This document shows positions 1,880 to 31,514 of a stretch of 64,000 nt of DNA, one piece after another. The DNA is from Bacteroidota bacterium (lineage in GTDB: Bacteria; Bacteroidota; Bacteroidia; Flavobacteriales; Flavobacteriaceae): contig JAIUNZ010000002.1 in NCBI GenBank assembly GCA_020161455.1, positions 131,091-195,090 of the forward strand. The letters are read 5' to 3'. A program made the translations under genes and the position numbers. The notes beneath the pieces are model-generated. The model was not told the origin of the DNA. It searched no databases and saw nothing but the letters and a program-made list of their open reading frames with translations. How positions within the stretch are numbered: the stretch's first letter is position 1; each line of letters starts with the position of its first letter.

Positions 1880-3260
1880 TATTTTCTTTTTTAGATAGGT
1901 TTGAAAACTTCATTAATATACAAAGAGACAACCAAAAAACATAAAGTCTAAAAGCATCTATCTGTATCCAGTTAATATAAAGACCTATAAATGTGATAAA
2001 TAATATTATTCCTAAAACTTTTATTTCTAACTCGTCATTTTTCATCAAAATTTTGGTTTGCTTAAAAGTAGTAAATATTAAAAATAAAAAGATGATGATT
2101 CCAATAATTCCTGTTTCAGCTAATAATCTTGTATAAAGATTATAACCTGGCGGAAAAGACCTAACGTTGCTTTCTTGATATATTTTTTTAAATTCCCAGT
2201 TGTTTTTAACTGCCCAAGACGGATATAGATGTCTTCCAGTAAAAGACTGTTGACCAAAACCAACACCAATGATTGGATTTTTTTTAAAAACTTGCAATGA
2301 AGAGTATTGTATGCCAAAACGAGATTGATTGGACACGCTTTTTGTTAAATTTCCAACAAAATCTAATGATTCTACTTTTTTTGTAATGTCTTTTATGGCT
2401 TTATTATCTTTATTTAGTGTAGCTAACAATAACAAAGAAAACGTTAAAACTAGTGTTGATAAAACAATAATTCGTTTCATATTAATGCTTAAGAAAATGT
2501 TTAAGAAAAAAATCAATTGAATTAAAATTACAACTAATGCAGTTCTTGAACCTGAGTAATATGTTAAAATAAGCACCATAAATAATGGAATATATTTCGA
2601 CCTTTTTTTTTCCGTTATCATATAACTGAACATCCAACCGGCAATAGAAATAAGAAATATTGCTAAAAATGGTGGTTCATAAGCAACAGATGATATTCTT
2701 CCTTGTGAGTCAAAATCTTCCTCTAAAAAAGGGAAATAATCAAAAAGGTTGTAAATTGGTTTAAGAAAAGAAAAGCCTAGTATAGTTACAGATACTTCGA
2801 AAAATCCATATATAAAAGTAAATATTAAAGAAAATAAAAATATCCTTCTTATTTTGAATAAAACCTGTTTAATATTCATTTCTATCAATACATTCCAAAA
2901 AAATAAAAGAAAAATAATCGTTGAAAATGAAAGTGAAATAAATTGACGGATAAATCGATTAAATCCAGTTGTATGTTTGAAGTAATTTTCAGAAACTGTC
3001 TGATAATTTAATAACGTACTTAATATTAACCACGCAATAAATGCTAACAATACTTGAAATACAGTTTTATTTAATGGAATATAAAAGGGTTTTCCTTTGA
3101 AAACATCAACTAAAAGTAAAGCAAAACCTATTAGAAAAAAGTAAGCTCCAGCTTCATTTTTATATTCACCTAAAAACTTTAATCCATCAAAAGAGGTAAA
3201 AGGAAAAAAAAACAACCCAAATAAAAAAAGTAAATAATAAGTTTGTTTTAAGCTCAGCAT
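1866..3260 (-). CDS. O-antigen polymerase/ligase-family (Wzy-like) polytopic membrane protein
   Basis: 464 aa with many TM helices and one larger loop (RISSVAYEPPF...). It overlaps wzx by 14 nt. Its position next to the flippase supports the call. Confidence 0.6.
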   Translation of the reverse strand: MLSLKQTYYLLFLFGLFFFPFTSFDGLKFLGEYKNEAGAYFFLIGFALLLVDVFKGKPFYIPLNKTVFQVLLAFIAWLILSTLLNYQTVSENYFKHTTGFNRFIRQFISLSFSTIIFLLFFWNVLIEMNIKQVLFKIRRIFLFSLIFTFIYGFFEVSVTILGFSFLKPIYNLFDYFPFLEEDFDSQGRISSVAYEPPFLAIFLISIAGWMFSYMITEKKRSKYIPLFMVLILTYYSGSRTALVVILIQLIFFLNIFLSINMKRIIVLSTLVLTFSLLLLATLNKDNKAIKDITKKVESLDFVGNLTKSVSNQSRFGIQYSSLQVFKKNPIIGVGFGQQSFTGRHLYPSWAVKNNWEFKKIYQESNVRSFPPGYNLYTRLLAETGIIGIIIFLFLIFTTFKQTKILMKNDELEIKVLGIILFITFIGLYINWIQIDAFRLYVFWLSLCILMKFSNLSKKENNVTY

Positions 3261-3276
3261 TGATGTTCATTTTAAT

Positions 3277-3312
3277 TAAAAAAGGTTGTTGTGAGACAAC
3301 CTTGTTTTTTTT
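3277..3312 (-). terminator. Bidirectional intrinsic terminator downstream of the lipoprotein gene
   Basis: Stem AAGGTTGT (3282-3289) / ACAACCTT (3296-3303), loop TGTGAG, with A-runs and T-runs on both sides. Confidence 0.7.
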
Positions 3313-3340
3313 CTTAAAAACAAATTTAATCGAATATTGT

Positions 3341-3886
3341 TTAAATTCCTTTATTTATCTTATCCATTTCATTATAGAATGGAATGTTTATTGACAAAAA
3401 AGGATCATAAATCCCTTTTGAATCTTTAAATGGAGTATAAAGTTTTGTCGTTGGGTCATACTTCACATATTCATTGTAATCAAAATAATCACTAATTTTA
3501 TCTTCTGTTACTTCAAAACTCTTTCCTAGATAACTAATTTTTATTTTTAATATTCTAACAGGTTCTTGATCTGGATTTTTACTAAAATCAAATCTAATAT
3601 TATTCGGTAGAACTCCTTCGGGTAATGCAAAAATTATTTCTTGCTCTTTATCACTACCTTTTACATGTACCCAAACAGCATGTTCATCATCAAACCACTC
3701 ATTACTAGGGTCTTTATAGTAAACAATTAAGTCATCTTCTTTTGGTATAATAACATTAGTTACCACATTAAAAGTTTCAATTTTCTCTTCTGGTTGTTCT
3801 TGAGTAACTGTTTCTTTTTGTTCTTGTTTACAAGAAGTTAGTAAGGTTATTAATGTTATAATTGCAATTCCAAATTTTGTTTTCAT
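3341..3886 (-). CDS. Lipoprotein of unknown function (paralog 1)
   Basis: 181 aa. Signal peptide plus lipobox LLTSC. Clearly homologous to the next ORF (IVYYKDPSNEWFDDEHAVWVHVKGS versus ILYYKDGSNEWFVDEKTVWVGVKGS; both share YDPF near the C-terminus). Confidence 0.7.
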   Translation of the reverse strand: MKTKFGIAIITLITLLTSCKQEQKETVTQEQPEEKIETFNVVTNVIIPKEDDLIVYYKDPSNEWFDDEHAVWVHVKGSDKEQEIIFALPEGVLPNNIRFDFSKNPDQEPVRILKIKISYLGKSFEVTEDKISDYFDYNEYVKYDPTTKLYTPFKDSKGIYDPFLSINIPFYNEMDKINKGI

Positions 3887-5410: not shown

Positions 5411-5955
5411 GCTTTTTTGGCATTTTCAAGGTTAGGTTGTACTTTATCTTTTTCGGAAATGATTAAATTTTCTAATGGAAATTGCCAATCAATTCCAATG
5501 GTTTTATCATTAAAGTCAATTCCTCCTTCGGATTCTTTATTGTAAAAATTGTCGCATTTGTAGAAAAAAACAGCGGTTTCGCTCAATACTAAAAATCCGT
5601 GAGCAAATCCTCTTGGAACAAAAAATTGTTTTTGATTTTCACTAGATAAAACTATAGCTTCATATTGACCAAATGTTTTAGAATTAGGACGAATATCGAC
5701 AGCTACATCAAGCACTTCTCCTTGTAGTACTCGCACTAATTTGGCTTGAGCATGTTCACCAGTTTGATAATGTAAACCGCGTAAAACGCCTTTTGTAGAA
5801 AAAGATTGATTGTCTTGAACAAAATGAACCGTTTGTCCTATTCCTTTTTGGAATGTTTCTTCATTGAAACTTTCCATAAAATAACCCCTTTCGTCCAAAA
5901 TAACTTTGGGTTCAATGATAAAACAACCTTTAAGTTTGGTTTCTGTAAAAATCAT
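5404..5955 (-). CDS. rfbC: dTDP-4-dehydrorhamnose 3,5-epimerase
   Basis: ERGYFMESF, VQDNQSFSTKGVLRGLHYQ, KLVRVLQGEVLDVAVDIR and PRGFAHGF motifs. I prefer the ATG at 5955 (MIFTETKLKG) over the track start at 5973. Confidence 0.92.
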   Translation of the reverse strand: MIFTETKLKGCFIIEPKVILDERGYFMESFNEETFQKGIGQTVHFVQDNQSFSTKGVLRGLHYQTGEHAQAKLVRVLQGEVLDVAVDIRPNSKTFGQYEAIVLSSENQKQFFVPRGFAHGFLVLSETAVFFYKCDNFYNKESEGGIDFNDKTIGIDWQFPLENLIISEKDKVQPNLENAKKAW

Positions 5956-6880: not shown

Positions 6881-7864
6881 TTAAGTGTTTAATTTAGCCA
6901 TTTGCCTTTTATAGTAAGCCTTGATTAGTCCTACTAAAATGAATAATGCCACAAAAATTAATGGTAGAATAAATTTCAATTTACCATTTATAGATTCTGT
7001 ATATTTGATATTAAGTACTTCGGCACTATTTTTAATAATTTTATTTAAATTAATTAATTCAATTCTATGAATTCCTTGCTCTCTAACCAAATCATCTTTT
7101 GTTTTGATTACATCATTTAATTGTGAATTTTCATTGTAATAGACCAATTTATCACTTTTTTGAGAGCCATTAACAGTATTTGAAAATGTATTTAAAAAAC
7201 TATTAATCTGATTGATAATAGAATCATTTTCAATTATTTTAATGCTAATGTTATCAATATACTGCTTTTGGATTTTACTATAAAACTCAGAATCATTTAA
7301 GTATTTTAAAATTGGATTTACAGTTTTATCAAAATCTGTTTCTTTAAGTGTTATAAAAGATATCAAATGATATGGATAATTTTTACTTGTGATATTATCT
7401 GAAAAGACTTTGCTAATATCTCCGTCTTCCGCCATCAATTTTATTAATTCAAAATTTTGGGGGTTTTCTTTAACAAACTTATAGACATCTGAAATAGGTT
7501 CGATTGTTATTTCTTTAAGCTTTTTAGCATCTTTAACACCCACTACATTCTTTAAAAAAAGAGTGTCATTGTCTTTAATTTTAGACTCTATTAACTCAAT
7601 TTTGGAATATAAATAATCAACAGAACCAAAATTTGGTTGGACATAAAGTTTGTTTTCAAATTCTTTATTAGTTTTATCTAAATAGAAACCAAGAGCCACT
7701 CCAATTATAAATAATATTGAAATTATAATTAAATTTCTTTTCAAAAAAAGAAATCCTCTAAAAATAGAAGTAGAAATGTTTTCAAAAAATTGTCCTATTT
7801 TTTTTGATACTTGCGATAAATCAATCTCTTGATTATCCGAATTGTTTTTAGACGTATCGTTCAT
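6881..7864 (-). CDS. Wzz-like (chain-length-determinant topology) membrane protein; function not proven
   Basis: 327 aa. One TM near the N-terminus ([16 protein letters not shown]) and one at the extreme C-terminus ([17 protein letters not shown]), flanking a ~250-aa coiled/soluble domain. This is PCP-1-like topology. It sits directly upstream of rfbA with a 2-nt gap. Confidence 0.45.
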
Positions 7865-23221: not shown

Positions 23222-23878
23222 ATGAAAAAAATAATCTTTCTCCTTTTTTTATTTTTTTCAATATCATTTTTTGCGCAGAATGATACTTTATCTGTAGTAA
23301 GACATACAGATAGTGATTTTATTATTCCAAAAAAATTAAAAGTAATTTATAAAGAACTACCAAATGAATTTTTTATAAATGTTCCAAATGTAAAATCTTT
23401 TAAAGTTTCAGGTAATGGATTATTTAAAAAAAGTAACAATTTATATTATATAGATAACAGAGAAGAAGATGAAATTTTTATAAATTTTGAAATTATATTG
23501 AACAACAATCAAATTAAAAAAGAAAGGCATTTGATAAAAAAGAGAAGTTTAAGTAATTTAATTATAGCTCTTAATAGTCAAGATGGACCAATTTTTAAAC
23601 TTCAAAAAGAAAAACTTAAAAATGCAGTATTAGAATTAAAGTTTGAAGATGAAAATATAGATGTTAAAAAGTTTATGTTTATATATAAATTTAAAGTTAA
23701 AATTCCTGGAAGACAAGAGATAGAAGTTAATGGAAATAAGATTGATACTAAAACATTTGAGTCTATTAAAAAGTTTACTTCAAGGAATGATATTATAACA
23801 ATTTATGATGTTAAAACTCAGATTAGATGTGGAATTTCGACAACACAAATTCAACCTTTAGTTATTACAATTCTCTAA
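23222..23878 (+). CDS. Secreted hypothetical protein
   Basis: Signal peptide MKKIIFLLFLFFSISFFAQ. I recognise no family. Its last codons and stop lie inside the first unit of the tRNA-Cys-linked tandem repeat. Confidence 0.55.
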   Translation: MKKIIFLLFLFFSISFFAQNDTLSVVRHTDSDFIIPKKLKVIYKELPNEFFINVPNVKSFKVSGNGLFKKSNNLYYIDNREEDEIFINFEIILNNNQIKKERHLIKKRSLSNLIIALNSQDGPIFKLQKEKLKNAVLELKFEDENIDVKKFMFIYKFKVKIPGRQEIEVNGNKIDTKTFESIKKFTSRNDIITIYDVKTQIRCGISTTQIQPLVITIL

Positions 23879-24190
23879 TCAATTTTTTCTAAAATTTATT
23901 ACAAAAAAACCTCCAAGTTTCCCTGAAGGTTTTATAGACATCGTCCGGATTCGAACCGGAGTATAAGGTTTTGCGTATTCTTTAATCAATTTTTTCTAAA
24001 AATTTACCATAAAAAAACCTCCAAGTTTCCTTGAAGGTTTTCGAGGCATCGTCCGGATTCAAACCAGAGTATCGGTTTTGCGTATTCTTTTAATCAATTT
24101 TTTCTAAAAATTTACCATAAAAAAACCTCCAAGTTTCCTTGAAGGTTTTCGAGGCATCGTCCGGATTCGAACCGGAGTATACGGTTTTGC
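23877..24190. repeat. Tandem repeat (period ~107-108 bp, ~2.9 copies) made of the tRNA-Cys 3' half, its terminator hairpin and ~45 bp of spacer
   Basis: AATCAATTTTTTCTAAAA.. recurs at 23877, 23984 and 24092. Each unit ends in ..CGTCCGGATTCGAACCGGAGTATA.GGTTTTGC. Only the last unit continues into the 5' half of the tRNA. Confidence 0.9.
24117..24146 (-). terminator. Intrinsic terminator of tRNA-Cys
   Basis: The minus-strand RNA folds as CCUUCAAG-GAAA-CUUGGAGG (one G-U pair) followed by U7. Confidence 0.75.
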
Positions 24191-24222
24191 AGACCGGTGC
24201 CTAGCCGCTCGGCCACGATGCC
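24152..24222 (-). tRNA. tRNA-Cys (anticodon GCA)
   Basis: The reverse complement reads GGCATCGTGGCCGAGCGGCTAGGCACCGGTCTGCAAAACCGTATACTCCGGTTCGAATCCGGACGATGCCT. Acceptor stem GGCATCG/CGATGCC, anticodon loop CT-GCA-AA, T-arm TCCGG-TTCGAAT-CCGGA, discriminator U73. 71 nt, with no encoded CCA. Confidence 0.93.
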
Positions 24223-24695: not shown

Positions 24696-24725
24696 CAATT
24701 TTCAAATTTTCAAATTTTCAAATTG
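24696..24725. repeat. 8-bp tandem repeat CAAATTTT, about 4 units
   Basis: The sequence reads CAATTTT CAAATTTT CAAATTTT CAAATTG. It lies in the folB/glnS divergent promoter region. Confidence 0.85.
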
Positions 24726-24737
24726 ACTAATTAAACA

Positions 24738-26780: not shown

Positions 26781-27767
26781 ATGGACAAAGCCGCATTAAT
26801 CAAAAATCTTTTTCTTGAAAGAAAAGAATTGAGTGTTACCGAAATTGTAAACGAGATAAATGTTTCAAAACAGTACATTCATCGTGTTATAAAAACATTA
26901 TTAGAAAATAATGAAATTATAAAAATTGGTATGCCGCCAAAAACAATTTACAAACTTAATGATACTGAAATTGTATCGATTGTAAAAAATGAAGGCGATT
27001 TTAGCCAAGATAAAATACGTTTTCTTGACGAAAATTTTATGATAATTACCGAAATTGGTCAAATACTAAATGGAGTAGAAGGTTTTCAAAATTGGTGTTT
27101 AAAAAGAAAATTACCACTAGAAAAAACTGTTGACGAGTTTATACTAACAAAAAAAAAATACACAAACTATCTCGACAGTAATGGCTTACTATCAGGATTA
27201 GCAAAACTTAAAAGCACGGTTGGTTTCAAAGAAATTTACATGGATGAATTACTTTATCTTGATTTTTATGCTATTGAAAGATTTGGAAAAACTAGGTTAG
27301 GAACTATTTTACATTATGCCAAACAAGGTCAAAACATAATGCTTATGAAAATTCTAATCAAAGAGATAAGAGATAAAATAGATTTGATTATTTCTACCTA
27401 TAAAATTGATGCGATTGCTTTTGTACCACCAACAATCAAAAGAGAAACACAATTAATGAAAGTTTTAGCTAATGGATTAAAAATCAATTTACCAAGTGTG
27501 GAAATTTTGAAGATAAGCGGTATAATTCCCGTACCGCAAAAGTCATTAAACAAAATAGAAGAACGTATTAATAATGCTGAAAGCACCTTTGTTGTAAAAA
27601 GTAATGTTACGTTTAATACAATTTTATTAATTGATGATGCTGTTGGCTCTGGCGCGACGTTAAATCAAATTGCGGGTAAAATTAAGAATAAAGACGTGGC
27701 AAAAATTGTTATTGGATTAGCAATAGTTGGAAGTTTTAAAGGTTTTGATGTTATTACTGATGTATAA
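26781..27767 (+). CDS. Winged-HTH / phosphoribosyltransferase (ComF/PurR-like PRTase) fusion protein
   Basis: 328 aa. N-terminal HTH (LSVTEIVNEINVSKQYIHRVIKTLLENNEIIKIG). A ComF-like segment IDAIAFVPPTIKRE. A C-terminal PRPP-binding loop ILLIDDAVGSGATLNQIA. Confidence 0.65.
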   Translation: MDKAALIKNLFLERKELSVTEIVNEINVSKQYIHRVIKTLLENNEIIKIGMPPKTIYKLNDTEIVSIVKNEGDFSQDKIRFLDENFMIITEIGQILNGVEGFQNWCLKRKLPLEKTVDEFILTKKKYTNYLDSNGLLSGLAKLKSTVGFKEIYMDELLYLDFYAIERFGKTRLGTILHYAKQGQNIMLMKILIKEIRDKIDLIISTYKIDAIAFVPPTIKRETQLMKVLANGLKINLPSVEILKISGIIPVPQKSLNKIEERINNAESTFVVKSNVTFNTILLIDDAVGSGATLNQIAGKIKNKDVAKIVIGLAIVGSFKGFDVITDV

Positions 27768-28866: not shown

Positions 28867-29511
28867 ATGAACAAACTATTTACGCTTATTGTTTTGTGTT
28901 GTACAACAATAAGTTTTGCCCAATATGGAAGGCGCGATGGTAACAGAATTGGCCTATCGGCAGGAATTTCTCAAACTTCTTTATTCACCAATAATTTCAA
29001 ATCTTCTCCCGAAATTGGTTTTGCTGGCGGTCTTTCCGTTAGAGGAAATTATTACAACAATTGGAGTATGATTTATGGAATGCAGTTTTTTTCGAGTAAT
29101 TTCAATCTTCAATCTACTTTTGACCAAAAAATAAAATACAATCTCGAAGGTGTAAAAGTACGTTTGTTATTAAGTTATAATGTAGTAGAAGATCATGTTT
29201 CATTAGATTTTGGTCCTGTTTTACAGATTAACGGAAAACTAAAAGTAAGCGATAGTGATAAAAACAAAATTTTAGATGGAACATTACTTAGAGCTGAACA
29301 AATTCAGGACATTTCTACATTTAGCGGTAACTTTTATTTAGGTGTTTCTGCCGGAAGCAAAGTAGTTCGAGCGGTTATTTTCTATGAATACGGATTTACC
29401 AATATTCTAAACAACCTCAATAGTGAAGATGGATTAAAAGTGTTGAATAACGGAGATAAATTCAAAGGAAACCTTGGAACTATTAACGGACAAATAGTTT
29501 TTAATTTATAA
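28867..29511 (+). CDS. Outer-membrane beta-barrel (porin-family/OmpW-like size) protein
   Basis: Signal peptide, alternating amphipathic beta strands and a C-terminal aromatic-rich strand (GQIVFNL). Confidence 0.6.
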   Translation: MNKLFTLIVLCCTTISFAQYGRRDGNRIGLSAGISQTSLFTNNFKSSPEIGFAGGLSVRGNYYNNWSMIYGMQFFSSNFNLQSTFDQKIKYNLEGVKVRLLLSYNVVEDHVSLDFGPVLQINGKLKVSDSDKNKILDGTLLRAEQIQDISTFSGNFYLGVSAGSKVVRAVIFYEYGFTNILNNLNSEDGLKVLNNGDKFKGNLGTINGQIVFNL

Positions 29512-29540
29512 AAAAACCCTAAATTTCAGGGATTTTTTTA
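29512..29540 (+). terminator. Weak intrinsic terminator after the OMP gene
   Basis: AAAAAACCCT-aaatttc-AGGGATTTTTTT has a short stem and a long T-run. Confidence 0.5.
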
Positions 29541-29570
29541 TTTTTATAAATAGCCGTTTGATTAATCGTT

Positions 29571-29969
29571 ACTCAATAACTAGTAAACTACATAGAGTAC
29601 AGATTAAACCACACTCAATAACTAATAAACCACATCGAGTAACTAATAAACATTACTCAATAACTAGTAAGCAACATTGAGTAACTAGGAAGCGTTACTC
29701 GATAACTAATAAGCAACACTGAGTAACTAGTAAACGTTACTCGATAACTAATAAACCACATCGAGTACAGAATAAGCATCACTCAATAACTAGAAAGCAA
29801 CATCAGGTAACTAGTAAACGTCACTCAATAACTAGAAAGCAACATCGAGTAACTAATAAACATTACTCAATAACGAATAAGCAACATTGAGTACAGAGTA
29901 AACAACACTCAATAACTAGTAAACATTACTTGATAACTAATAATCAACATCGAGTAAGTAGAAAGCAAA
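29571..29969. repeat. Array of 19 exactly phased 21-bp tandem units (42-bp higher-order period), non-coding
   Basis: Units start at 29571 + 21n with no indels. Type A resembles ACTCAATAACTAGTAAGCAAC and type B resembles ATCGAGTAACTAATAAACATT, and they alternate (ABAB...AAB). No ORF of 60 aa or more on either strand. Confidence 0.95.
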
Positions 29970-29972
29970 ACT

Positions 29973-30005
29973 AAAAAATCCCGAGCAATCGGGATTTTTA
30001 TTTTT
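29973..30005 (-). terminator. Strong bidirectional intrinsic terminator after gltX
   Basis: AAAAAATCCCGA-GCAA-TCGGGATTTTT has a 12-bp stem and a GNRA-type loop, with T-runs in both orientations. Confidence 0.85.
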
Positions 30006-31514
30006 TTATAATGTTGTTATTGCTTTTCCAATTCGTTTGATGGTTTCCTCTTTTCCAATCATTTCGATGATATCAAAAAGATGCGGACCTTTCAAAGCAC
30101 CAACTAAGCTTAGTCGTAACGGTTGCATTACTTTCCCCATTCCGATTTCGTTTTCGGTCATCCAGTTTTTTAAGATGGTTTCGATGTTTACAGAAGTAAA
30201 ATCATCTATAGAATTTAATACTTCAGAAACTTGTTGCATCAAATTTGGCGTTTCTTCTTTCCAGTTTTTGGCTGCTTTTTCATCATACGATGTTGGTGCT
30301 ACAAAGAAATAATCACTTAATTCCCAAAATTCAGACACGAAATTTGCACGTTCTTTTATGGATGAAACTATTTTTACCAAAGTCGTATAATCAACATCAA
30401 TTCCTTTTTCATAAAGAATAGGAGCAAAGGCTTTTGCTAATTCTTCATCACTTTGTTTTTGTAAATACTGATGATTGAACCATTTGTTTTTTTCTGGATC
30501 AAATTTGGCTCCAGCTTTATGAACTCTGTTTAAATCGAATTTTTCAGCCAATTCATCTAACGAAAACAGTTCTTGTTCCGTTCCGTCATTCCAACCTAAT
30601 AACGCTAAAAAGTTAACTACAGCTTCTGGGAAAAATCCTTTTTCTCTATAACCTGATGAAATGGTGCCGTCTTCATTTTTCCAATCTAATGGAAATACAG
30701 GAAAGCCCATTTTATCGCCATCACGTTTTGATAATTTTCCGTTACCAATTGGTTTTAAAATCAATGGTAAATGCGCAAATTCTGGCGCTTGCCATCCAAA
30801 TGCTTTGTACAATAAACTGTGTAACGGCAAACTTGGTAACCATTCTTCACCACGAATTACATGAGATGTTTCCATCAAATGGTCGTCAACTATGTTCGCT
30901 AAATGATAAGTTGGCATTCCATCCGATTTAAACAAAACTTTATCGTCTAATAAATTGGTTTCAAAATTAATGTCACCACGAATGATATCTTTTAAATGCA
31001 ACGTTTCGTTAACAGGCGTTTTAAATCGTATAACATAAGCTTCGTCATTGGCAATTCTTTTTTCAGTTTCTTCTTTTGAAATTACCAAAGAAGTATCTAA
31101 TTTTTCACGATTGTGCCAATTGTAAATAAAGGTTTTGCCTTGTTCTTCGTGTTGTTTTCTATGAAAATCTAAGGCTTCGGCTGTATCAAAAGCATAGTAA
31201 GCCCAACCTTTTTCTATTAGTTCATCGGCGTACTTTTTGTATAAATGCTTGCGTTCACTTTGACGGTATGGTCCAAACTTCTCGTTTTTTCCAACCGTTT
31301 CACTAGGCGCAATTCCCAACCATTCTAAAGCTTCAAATATATAAGCTTCTGCTCCAGGAACAAAACGATTTTGATCGGTATCTTCAATTCGTAAATAGAA
31401 AACTCCGTTGTGTTTTTTGGCAAATAAATAATTAAATAACGCTGTTCTTACACCACCAATATGCAATGGTCCAGTTGGACTTGGTGCAAAACGAACTCTT
31501 ACAGGTCTTGACAT
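30006..31514 (-). CDS. gltX: Glutamate--tRNA ligase
   Basis: MSRPVRVRFAPSPTGPLHIGGVRTALFNYLFA (HIGH motif) and KLSKRD (KMSKS motif). I prefer the ATG at 31514 over the track start at 31541. Confidence 0.95.
   Translation of the reverse strand: MSRPVRVRFAPSPTGPLHIGGVRTALFNYLFAKKHNGVFYLRIEDTDQNRFVPGAEAYIFEALEWLGIAPSETVGKNEKFGPYRQSERKHLYKKYADELIEKGWAYYAFDTAEALDFHRKQHEEQGKTFIYNWHNREKLDTSLVISKEETEKRIANDEAYVIRFKTPVNETLHLKDIIRGDINFETNLLDDKVLFKSDGMPTYHLANIVDDHLMETSHVIRGEEWLPSLPLHSLLYKAFGWQAPEFAHLPLILKPIGNGKLSKRDGDKMGFPVFPLDWKNEDGTISSGYREKGFFPEAVVNFLALLGWNDGTEQELFSLDELAEKFDLNRVHKAGAKFDPEKNKWFNHQYLQKQSDEELAKAFAPILYEKGIDVDYTTLVKIVSSIKERANFVSEFWELSDYFFVAPTSYDEKAAKNWKEETPNLMQQVSEVLNSIDDFTSVNIETILKNWMTENEIGMGKVMQPLRLSLVGALKGPHLFDIIEMIGKEETIKRIGKAITTL

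Follow-up and report, generated by a model that had tools for sequence, protein, structure and literature searches.

The array and its locus

We analysed a window of 64,000 nucleotides from contig JAIUNZ010000002.1 (assembly GCA_020161455.1, Flavobacteriaceae). The subject of this work is a tandem repeat array that lies in it between two convergent genes, one coding for a PorT-family outer-membrane beta-barrel protein and the other, gltX, for glutamyl-tRNA synthetase (GluRS). Judged from sequence comparison, the array is a bacterial intergenic minisatellite of unusual anatomy, with conserved unit sequence and register and an unstable copy number. The features of the locus, in window coordinates, are the following.

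28867-29511, plus strand: upstream gene, PorT-family outer-membrane beta-barrel protein, 214 amino acids (aa); the name comes from source annotations only and the Pfam search gave no match
29517-29531: terminator-like hairpin past the PorT-family gene, called on the minus strand alone, with 6 pairs and then seven T
29541-29570, plus strand: left junction motif TTTTTATAAATAGCCGTTTGATTAATCGTT, with CCGTTTG at 29554-29560
29571-29969: tandem array, 399 bp, 19 head-to-tail units of 21 bp, zero indels
29592-29612, 29760-29780 and 29886-29906: B' variant units (units 2, 10 and 16), GAGTACAGA
29907-29948: phase break, A-A adjacency of units 17 and 18
29966-29973, minus strand: candidate -7 box TAGTTTTG, a perfect TAnnTTTG in gltX sense, past the gltX terminator and reading into the array
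29974-29999: bidirectional terminator of gltX, 11 pairs, called on both strands, with a sequence that varies between alleles
30006-31514, minus strand: gltX, convergent with the PorT-family gene

The limits and composition of the array were determined by self-identity, Tandem Repeats Finder (TRF) and listing of the units. An earlier note on this DNA, made from the letters alone, had described 19 units of exactly 21 bp without indels, and this description was reproduced in full. The units follow the order ABABABABABABABABAAB, where type A resembles ACTCAATAACTAGTAAGCAAC and type B resembles ATCGAGTAACTAATAAACATT, and this odd/even alternation gives a period of 42 bp. The alternation had also been recognised in the earlier note, which missed the A-A break at units 17/18 and the third unit type, B'. 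Both A and B contain the common core TAACTAnTAArC at unit positions 7-18. The core keeps a direct orientation throughout, while an arm of 7-10 bp flips its orientation every 21 bp. At lags of 21, 42 and 126 the self-identity was 0.60, 0.76 and 0.78, respectively, compared with 0.28 +/- 0.06 at other lags, and TRF called periods of 42 and 126. The 126-bp superperiod was rejected as not robust, since the intervals between B' units in the window are unequal (8, then 6 units) and other alleles have different ones. The A consensus had 8 matches at up to 3 mismatches where shuffled sequences expect 0.

The array is non-coding: the longest open reading frames (ORFs) overlapping it have 40 and 41 aa, in line with the earlier statement that no ORF of 60 aa or more is present. 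It was recovered alike in independent NCBI, ENA, JGI and Logan assemblies, and therefore it is not an assembly artefact.

A shorter period is nested in the units. Identity was 0.43-0.45 at lags that are multiples of 7, and among the six heptads that make up the 42-mer 3.8 of 7 positions are shared, a value not reached in any of 5,000 shuffles (mean 2.19 +/- 0.27). The central heptad of the 21-mer is AACTAAT. The array thus appears to be an old higher-order minisatellite of a single locus, which would have started from an AACTAAT-like heptamer and grown from 7 to 21 to 42 bp. Its head-to-tail units at one locus, with whole-unit differences in copy number between strains, place it within the definition of a variable number of tandem repeats (VNTR) or minisatellite. 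As a separate observation, long and pure intergenic heptamer microsatellites, (TAACTAA)n and variants, were seen in unrelated Bacteroidota metagenome-assembled genomes (MAGs), with about 10-35 copies each as judged by eye (L001 ~760-930, L008 ~3160-3400, L053 ~7420-7490 and L080 ~5720-5880); this heptamer corresponds to the heptad at the centre of the 21-bp unit.

Conservation of unit sequence and register

Syntenic loci were retrieved by means of the PorT-family and Band_7 proteins. The contigs of P0001, P0002, P0003 and P0008 stop short of the gltX side. The array was found in three Flavobacterium lineages, namely, the window species, F. capsici and a capsici-like lineage; the window locus is identical to that of the MAG GCA_963169305.1.

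Window units 1-8 are collinear with units 1-8 of F. capsici, and window units 9-15 with units 1-7 of the capsici-like lineage (L251), in both cases with unit-specific variants common to the two sequences. For example, unit 2 of F. capsici is the ortholog of the B' unit at 29592-29612. Because the units are positionally orthologous and share variants, the array must be older than the species split. Concerted evolution must also be weak, since this positional orthology has been kept across species that are 21-46% diverged at 4-fold sites.

The orthologous units were identical at 288 of 315 positions (91.4%), and the binomial probability of such conservation at a neutral divergence of 29% is p = 5e-19. 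By comparison, identity at 4-fold sites of four neighbouring genes ranged from 0.54 to 0.79, and the flanks of the array were 82% (left motif) and 83% (first 100 nt on the right) identical. Two nearby intergenic regions that carry promoters were 93-96% identical between species. The 27 orthologous substitutions were distributed unevenly over the 21 positions of the unit (chi-square p = 6e-4), with 7 at position 13, 4 at position 19, 3 at position 5 and zero at positions 2, 7-9, 12, 15, 16, 18 and 20. In the tally, positions 13, 14, 17 and 19 jointly change at about 25%, near the neutral rate, and the other positions at about 5%. Among 50 distinct units, positions 9, 12, 15 and 16 were invariant in A, B and B' alike, and by eye the unit listings gave no difference between species at any position of the A and B consensus. 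The two unit types A and B are conserved at the same positions, despite the different parts (loop or linker) that hairpin models give them. Regarding length, the short non-coding stretches at the flanks each showed a 1-nt length difference together with about 6-7 substitutions, against no small indel in 77 units of the array.

The alignments show a degree of conservation, in the sequence of the units as in their exact 21-bp register, that exceeds that of the flanks and the 4-fold sites. Taking together the conservation between species, the uneven substitutions and the absence of small indels, purifying selection on the motif T7-A-A-C-T-A-n-T-A-A-r-C18 and on the 21-nt register is probable.

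Alleles, haplotypes and recombination

Six alleles were distinguished.

19 units, window species: window, L241/242/244, L266/268
12 units (version a), window species: L243/245/246, L269/273
12 units (version b), window species: L250, L270/271/274/275
13 units, window species: L267/L272
12 units, F. capsici CP134878.1: L249
9 units, capsici-like lineage: L251-254

Their 77 units (50 distinct) always add up to whole multiples of 21 bp, with no other indel. In-register recombination or slippage evidently keeps altering the number of units, from 9 to 19. In four further lineages, including a Flavobacterium sp. and F. terrisoli, the array is missing, and only a bidirectional terminator of 31-33 bp stands between the upstream gene and gltX; the PorT-family proteins of these lineages are 78-86% identical to that of the window. 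It follows that the array is restricted to a small clade.

Two structural haplotypes were observed. In type I, carried by the window and F. capsici, the order is upstream gene, terminator, junction motif of about 30 nt (TATAAA..CCGTTTG..GTT), array, bidirectional terminator and gltX. In type II, carried by L251-254 and L267/L272, the array begins directly at the PorT stop codon (TAA-TTAAACGTA-ACTCGC...), with neither the left terminator nor the junction motif. The motif, which is 82% identical between the window and F. capsici, is thus deleted in type II alleles. The earlier note had described the array as boxed in by two terminators. Both hairpins do exist in the window, but the left one is asymmetric, with no plus-strand call, and type II lacks it. 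The argument that the array is insulated from read-through consequently fails where the array follows the PorT stop codon; in these alleles it must be co-transcribed with the PorT-family gene, given that no left terminator is present. A promoter on the plus strand in the left junction motif was considered and rejected, as the motif has no TAnnTTTG box on that strand and is deleted in type II alleles.

The PorT gene of the type II locus L267 is of window type (97-100% identity), so that types I and II occur in both species. Units 9-13 of L267/L272 are identical to window units 15-19. The terminator of gltX switches between CCCGAGCAATCGGG and CCCTGAAWWTCAGGG in alleles sharing one array, and gltX itself is a patchwork in which, among strains of one species, segments of 100 nt (e.g., window ~30170-30270) have 74-76% identity and neighbouring segments ~90-100%. 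This pattern points to the 3' end of gltX as a place of frequent recombination, and the shared units, the switching right terminator and the gltX patchwork together make the array locus a recombination mosaic.

Hairpins and transcription signals

The interlocking arms described in the earlier note were found, for example the perfect inverted arms GAGTAAC-N8-GTTACTC at 29679-29700 and 29721-29742. Most arms are imperfect, with Watson-Crick pairs averaging 7.0-7.5 of 10 or 5.5 of 7. The ladder of hairpins or cruciforms proposed from these arms is weak. Hairpin structure in the array is possible. Extrusion of DNA cruciforms is unlikely, the arms being too short and imperfect (5.5/7 Watson-Crick, loops of 8-14 nt), and covariation was not robust.

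Folding energies lay below those of shuffled sequences (z = -6.0 on the plus strand and -5.6 on the minus strand), z being about -6 whether the molecule was treated as RNA or as DNA. For the register with 10-bp stems and 8-nt loops, 89.4% of the cells pair on the minus strand, against 86.8 +/- 1.3 in shuffles (21 of 500 as high); the covariation score was matched by 28 of 500 shuffles and two pairs had double changes. On the plus strand the same register gave 77.2% pairing, equal to shuffles. Hairpins with 14-nt loops showed neither covariation nor an excess of pairing. The 7-bp core arms pair alike on both strands, at about 6.1-6.3 of 7 when wobble is included, and several orthologous substitutions in the arms are uncompensated (ACTCTAT, ACTCGCT and TCTCAAT in L251). 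On both strands the frequency of the minimum free energy (MFE) structure in the ensemble was close to zero, which implies many competing structures.

The box TAGTTTTG conforms to TAnnTTTG, which we take to be the consensus of the Bacteroidetes -7 promoter box. A perfect box at this place, on the minus strand past the gltX terminator, was found in three lineages (window, L243 and L251). L249 is without an exact match, and by eye both L250 and L249 have variants with one mismatch. The density of TAnnTTTG in the window is 0.88 per kb per strand; that is, the box is common. For an independent small RNA (sRNA) gene, the candidate signals are a minus-strand box and, in type I, the left terminator, with covariation that is marginal or absent depending on the hairpin register.

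Search for copies and comparison with known families

No further copy of the A or B unit was found at up to 4 mismatches elsewhere in the 64 kb window, where patterns for the 10-12 nt core and the arms gave 1-3 near-matches outside the array. The specific pattern of two units retrieved no locus but this one from metagenome contigs and nothing from viral contigs. A looser pattern, TAACTARWAA-N11-TAACTARWAA, yielded chance matches and heptamer microsatellites in genome and viral contigs, with no relative among the 240 loci listed; one of them, L108, was examined as a 21-bp relative and rejected, as it is a cyanobacterial in-frame coding repeat. A distant-mode blastn against 72,556 plasmids and 50,697 phages was without matches. 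In the Rfam search, at E up to 10, no match falls entirely within the array; the few that touch its last units centre on the right terminator and lie far below the gathering thresholds.

Bacterial VNTR or minisatellite loci include, for example, the intergenic repeats of the mycobacterial interspersed repetitive unit (MIRU) type. Like them, the array consists of non-coding head-to-tail units of tens of bp at one intergenic locus, differing between strains by whole units. It departs from them in that its units are old, individually diverged and positionally orthologous across species, with a 7/21/42 structure, an inverted arm in alternate units, and sequence and register conserved above flanks and 4-fold sites. 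CsrB and RsmZ are sponge RNAs with multiple sites, in which many copies of a short motif in loops or linkers titrate one protein; the spacing of the motif in CsrB is irregular. They illustrate how an RNA acting through the repeated core would work, although the motif of the array is unrelated to theirs, its spacing is exact and Rfam found no match. Arrays of type III antitoxin RNA of the ToxI type, which are made of tandem repeats of about 36 nt (PMC5086642), resemble the array as length-strict, tandem non-coding repeats bounded by a terminator. They differ in unit length, which is 21 or 42 nt here, and in their toxin gene, for which the array has no counterpart downstream on either strand: its two flanking genes are convergent and code for GluRS and for the PorT-family protein, which had no PADLOC match. 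A clustered regularly interspaced short palindromic repeats (CRISPR) array was also discarded, because the units abut and there are no unique spacers.

Neighbouring genes and other features of the window

The neighbours of the array code for LysE, FolB, GlnRS, Band_7, PorT-family, GluRS, DUF4175-like, YbeY and MnmG proteins. Between glnS and the Band_7 gene there is a gene for a 328-aa protein (26781-27767, plus strand) with weak Pfam matches to HTH_11 and PRTase, which also matches the PADLOC model PsyrT (E = 2.9e-18) and ShosT. The window and L241/L250-type strains carry it, and L243-type strains, F. capsici and L251 do not; from this distribution and these matches, we infer that it is a strain-variable, defence-like insertion.

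In some lineages a hypothetical gene of 296-317 aa lies between the PorT-family gene and gltX (L249 6746-7636, L260 4660-5613 and L261 1257-1685). The copies of F. capsici and F. terrisoli have 61% identity, and neither Pfam (no significant match) nor PADLOC recognised the product. Several metagenome contigs have a plus-strand gene at the same position; the 296-317 aa gene is absent from the window species and other lineages. As a partner of the array it was rejected, for it is an ancestral hypothetical gene and F. terrisoli carries it without an array.

Two other repeats were noted. At 23870-24190 a unit of 108 bp is repeated 3 times with 92% identity, and its consensus resembles the 3' part of a tRNA plus a terminator-like stretch. 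ARAGORN detected one intact tRNA only, a tRNA-Cys at the end of this repeat (24151-24222, minus strand). The repeat could be a tandem duplication of the tRNA 3' end or a set of integration scars at the tRNA. In the folB-glnS intergenic region (24697-24732) the 8-bp repeat AATTTTCA is present in 3.5 copies, and at the same place F. capsici has another short repeat, CATAAAC-like. The difference between the two species means that small repeats turn over in this promoter region.

Interpretation

We tentatively favour, with a probability of about 0.4, the view that the array is a multivalent platform of the repeated motif TAACTAnTAArC. It would act as a landing pad in which 9-19 copies of the motif, at a fixed spacing of 21 nt, are offered to one sequence-specific factor, and copy number would be free to drift because the sites are redundant. 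Recognition on double-stranded DNA is slightly preferred, and recognition of an RNA copy, as a sponge-like transcript, is possible. The lean towards DNA has three reasons: the invariant register of 21 bp corresponds to two helical turns, so that all the sites would face one way; the pattern of conservation is the same in A and B units, whatever role the hairpin models give them; and the transcriptional context is not conserved, the array being insulated by a terminator in one haplotype and placed directly after the PorT stop codon in the other. The role at the DNA level or the dedicated transcript suggested in the earlier note is thus compatible with the conservation of sequence and register, even if its argument from insulation falls. 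Several observations weigh against a platform. No candidate for a binding protein is encoded beside the array, where the neighbours are housekeeping genes, and the 328-aa PsyrT-like protein was rejected as a partner since its presence or absence is independent of the array. The B' units carry TACAGA where the core has TAACTA, and so their core is broken. In a conservative count the heterogeneity among positions is marginal (chi-square p = 0.043; number of invariant positions P = 0.056). The array is missing from related Flavobacterium species and, where retained, the number and identity of the units vary freely, so it cannot be essential. Finally, the locus is a mosaic with both structural haplotypes in both species, and on this account gene flow and in-register gene conversion could mimic part of the conservation. 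A bolder reading, under which the array would be a working regulator built of many repeats and without a described counterpart in Bacteroidota, we consider rather unlikely. In RNA form it might be a gltX-sense transcript of about 450 nt with about 9 hairpin modules, whose conserved loops and linkers titrate an RNA-binding protein like a CsrB-type sponge; in DNA form, its helically phased sites on the chromosome might nucleate a filament of some DNA-binding protein. Under both versions the copy-number polymorphism would tune dose between strains.

The strongest competitor of the platform is a neutral minisatellite, in which the permissive gap between the convergent genes let a heptamer microsatellite grow to a higher-order repeat, without function and without harm, while in-register unequal exchange and gene conversion hold the units similar and in phase. 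This explanation is plausible, though we lean to doubt it. It agrees with the variable number of units (9, 12 in three versions, 13 and 19), with the 31-33 bp gap of the four related lineages without array, with the 7/21/42 nesting, which is typical of satellite growth, and with the (TAACTAA)n repeats of other Bacteroidota. The mosaic locus, the just marginal result of the conservative heterogeneity test and the failure to find a partner gene, a known RNA family or a homologue elsewhere point in the same direction. It does not readily account for units that are 91% identical and have no fixed consensus difference despite 21-46% divergence at 4-fold sites and weak concerted evolution, for substitutions gathered at a few positions of near-neutral rate while other positions never change, for zero small indels in 77 units, or for an array more conserved than its immediate flanks. 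The earlier note had given as signs of a neutral minisatellite a unit scattered like a generic repeat, or a locus absent or hypervariable in close relatives without conserved phasing. The array is indeed absent in several close relatives and variable in unit number, but its phasing is strictly conserved and no dispersed copies were seen.

A transcribed array that acts through its structure, folding into a chain of about 9 short hairpins, seems improbable to us. It could be a minus-strand RNA of about 450 nt in gltX sense, running from the TAGTTTTG box to the left terminator and starting about 7 nt beyond the TTAATTTG/TAGTTTTG box, or the array could serve as 3' untranslated region (UTR) to the mRNA of either gltX or the PorT-family gene; the hairpins would serve to protect 3' ends or to stop read-through between the convergent genes, as proposed for REP/BIME (repetitive extragenic palindromic elements and bacterial interspersed mosaic elements). 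The folding energies, the minus-strand pairing and covariation in the 8-nt-loop register, the perfect box in three lineages, the left hairpin called on the minus strand only and the necessary location of the type II array within the PorT-family transcript all suit such an RNA. On the other hand, the most conserved part of the unit is the direct-repeat core and not the arms, hairpins do not need a strict register of 21 nt, type II alleles lack the minus-strand terminator, and the points already given on 14-nt loops, strand-indifferent pairing, uncompensated substitutions, competing structures, Rfam and the commonness of the box speak against it. That the array belongs to a dispersed REP/BIME family, as a local amplification of a genome-wide palindromic element mobilised by a RAYT transposase, is very unlikely. 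Its palindromic arms of 7-10 bp in alternating orientation at regular spacing recall BIMEs, in which REPs are regularly spaced in alternating orientations (PMC2817692). The extragenic site between convergent genes, beside terminators, and the polymorphic number of whole units are also shared with the REP/BIME elements of Enterobacteria and Pseudomonas (PMC2817692, PMC3116915). REPs, however, exceed 100 copies per genome (PMC2817692), whereas a single locus was found here, with no second unit copy in the 64 kb window and this locus only in metagenome contigs; the unit of 21 bp, the 12-nt core that is a direct and not an inverted repeat, and the weak, AT-rich arms likewise differ. Least probable of all, and strongly disfavoured, is the reading as a centromere or iteron array of plasmid type, the comparison drawn in the earlier note, in which a ParB- or Rep-type protein would bind the repeats to control segregation or replication. 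Plasmid iterons are direct repeats of 17-22 bp bound by Rep, usually in 3-9 copies, and in many of them a 21-bp phasing corresponds to two helical turns. The unit of 21 bp and the direct-repeat core fit this description; the 9-19 copies exceed the usual number, and a rep gene, an AT-rich origin context and DnaA boxes are lacking. The F plasmid centromere sopC is made of 12 direct 43-bp repeats, and SopB binds the 16-bp inverted repeat that is present in every one of them (PMC3177203); the array resembles it in geometry, with a tandem period of ~42-43 bp, an inverted repeat and many phased copies. Unlike sopC, the array is chromosomal, unstable in copy number, absent in closely related sister species and without sopAB/parAB. 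Over about 6 kb to each side, par and rep genes are absent from all the lineages, which agrees with what the earlier note had remarked, the flanks are syntenic chromosomal housekeeping genes, and the plasmid and phage searches were empty. There is no skew switch at the array (29.6-30.0 kb), which also led us to reject a role as replication origin or terminus. The analogy thus fails on every point that could be tested.

Significance

Whichever explanation is correct, annotation of the array as a centromere, iteron, CRISPR, REP or known RNA is unwarranted. If the array is neutral, it would still be a useful marker for strain typing, and a clear case of how higher-order repeats evolve in bacteria (from 7 through 21 to 42 bp), at a recombination hot spot whose structural haplotypes are trans-specific. 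The conservation described here hints at a binding role, and considering that F. capsici is cultured and its genome complete, the array is experimentally tractable. Should selection lie behind this conservation, the array would offer a compact example of how a satellite in a bacterium was co-opted as a platform with many sites, its dose differing from strain to strain, and it would add a type of regulator to a phylum with poorly known post-transcriptional and nucleoid biology.

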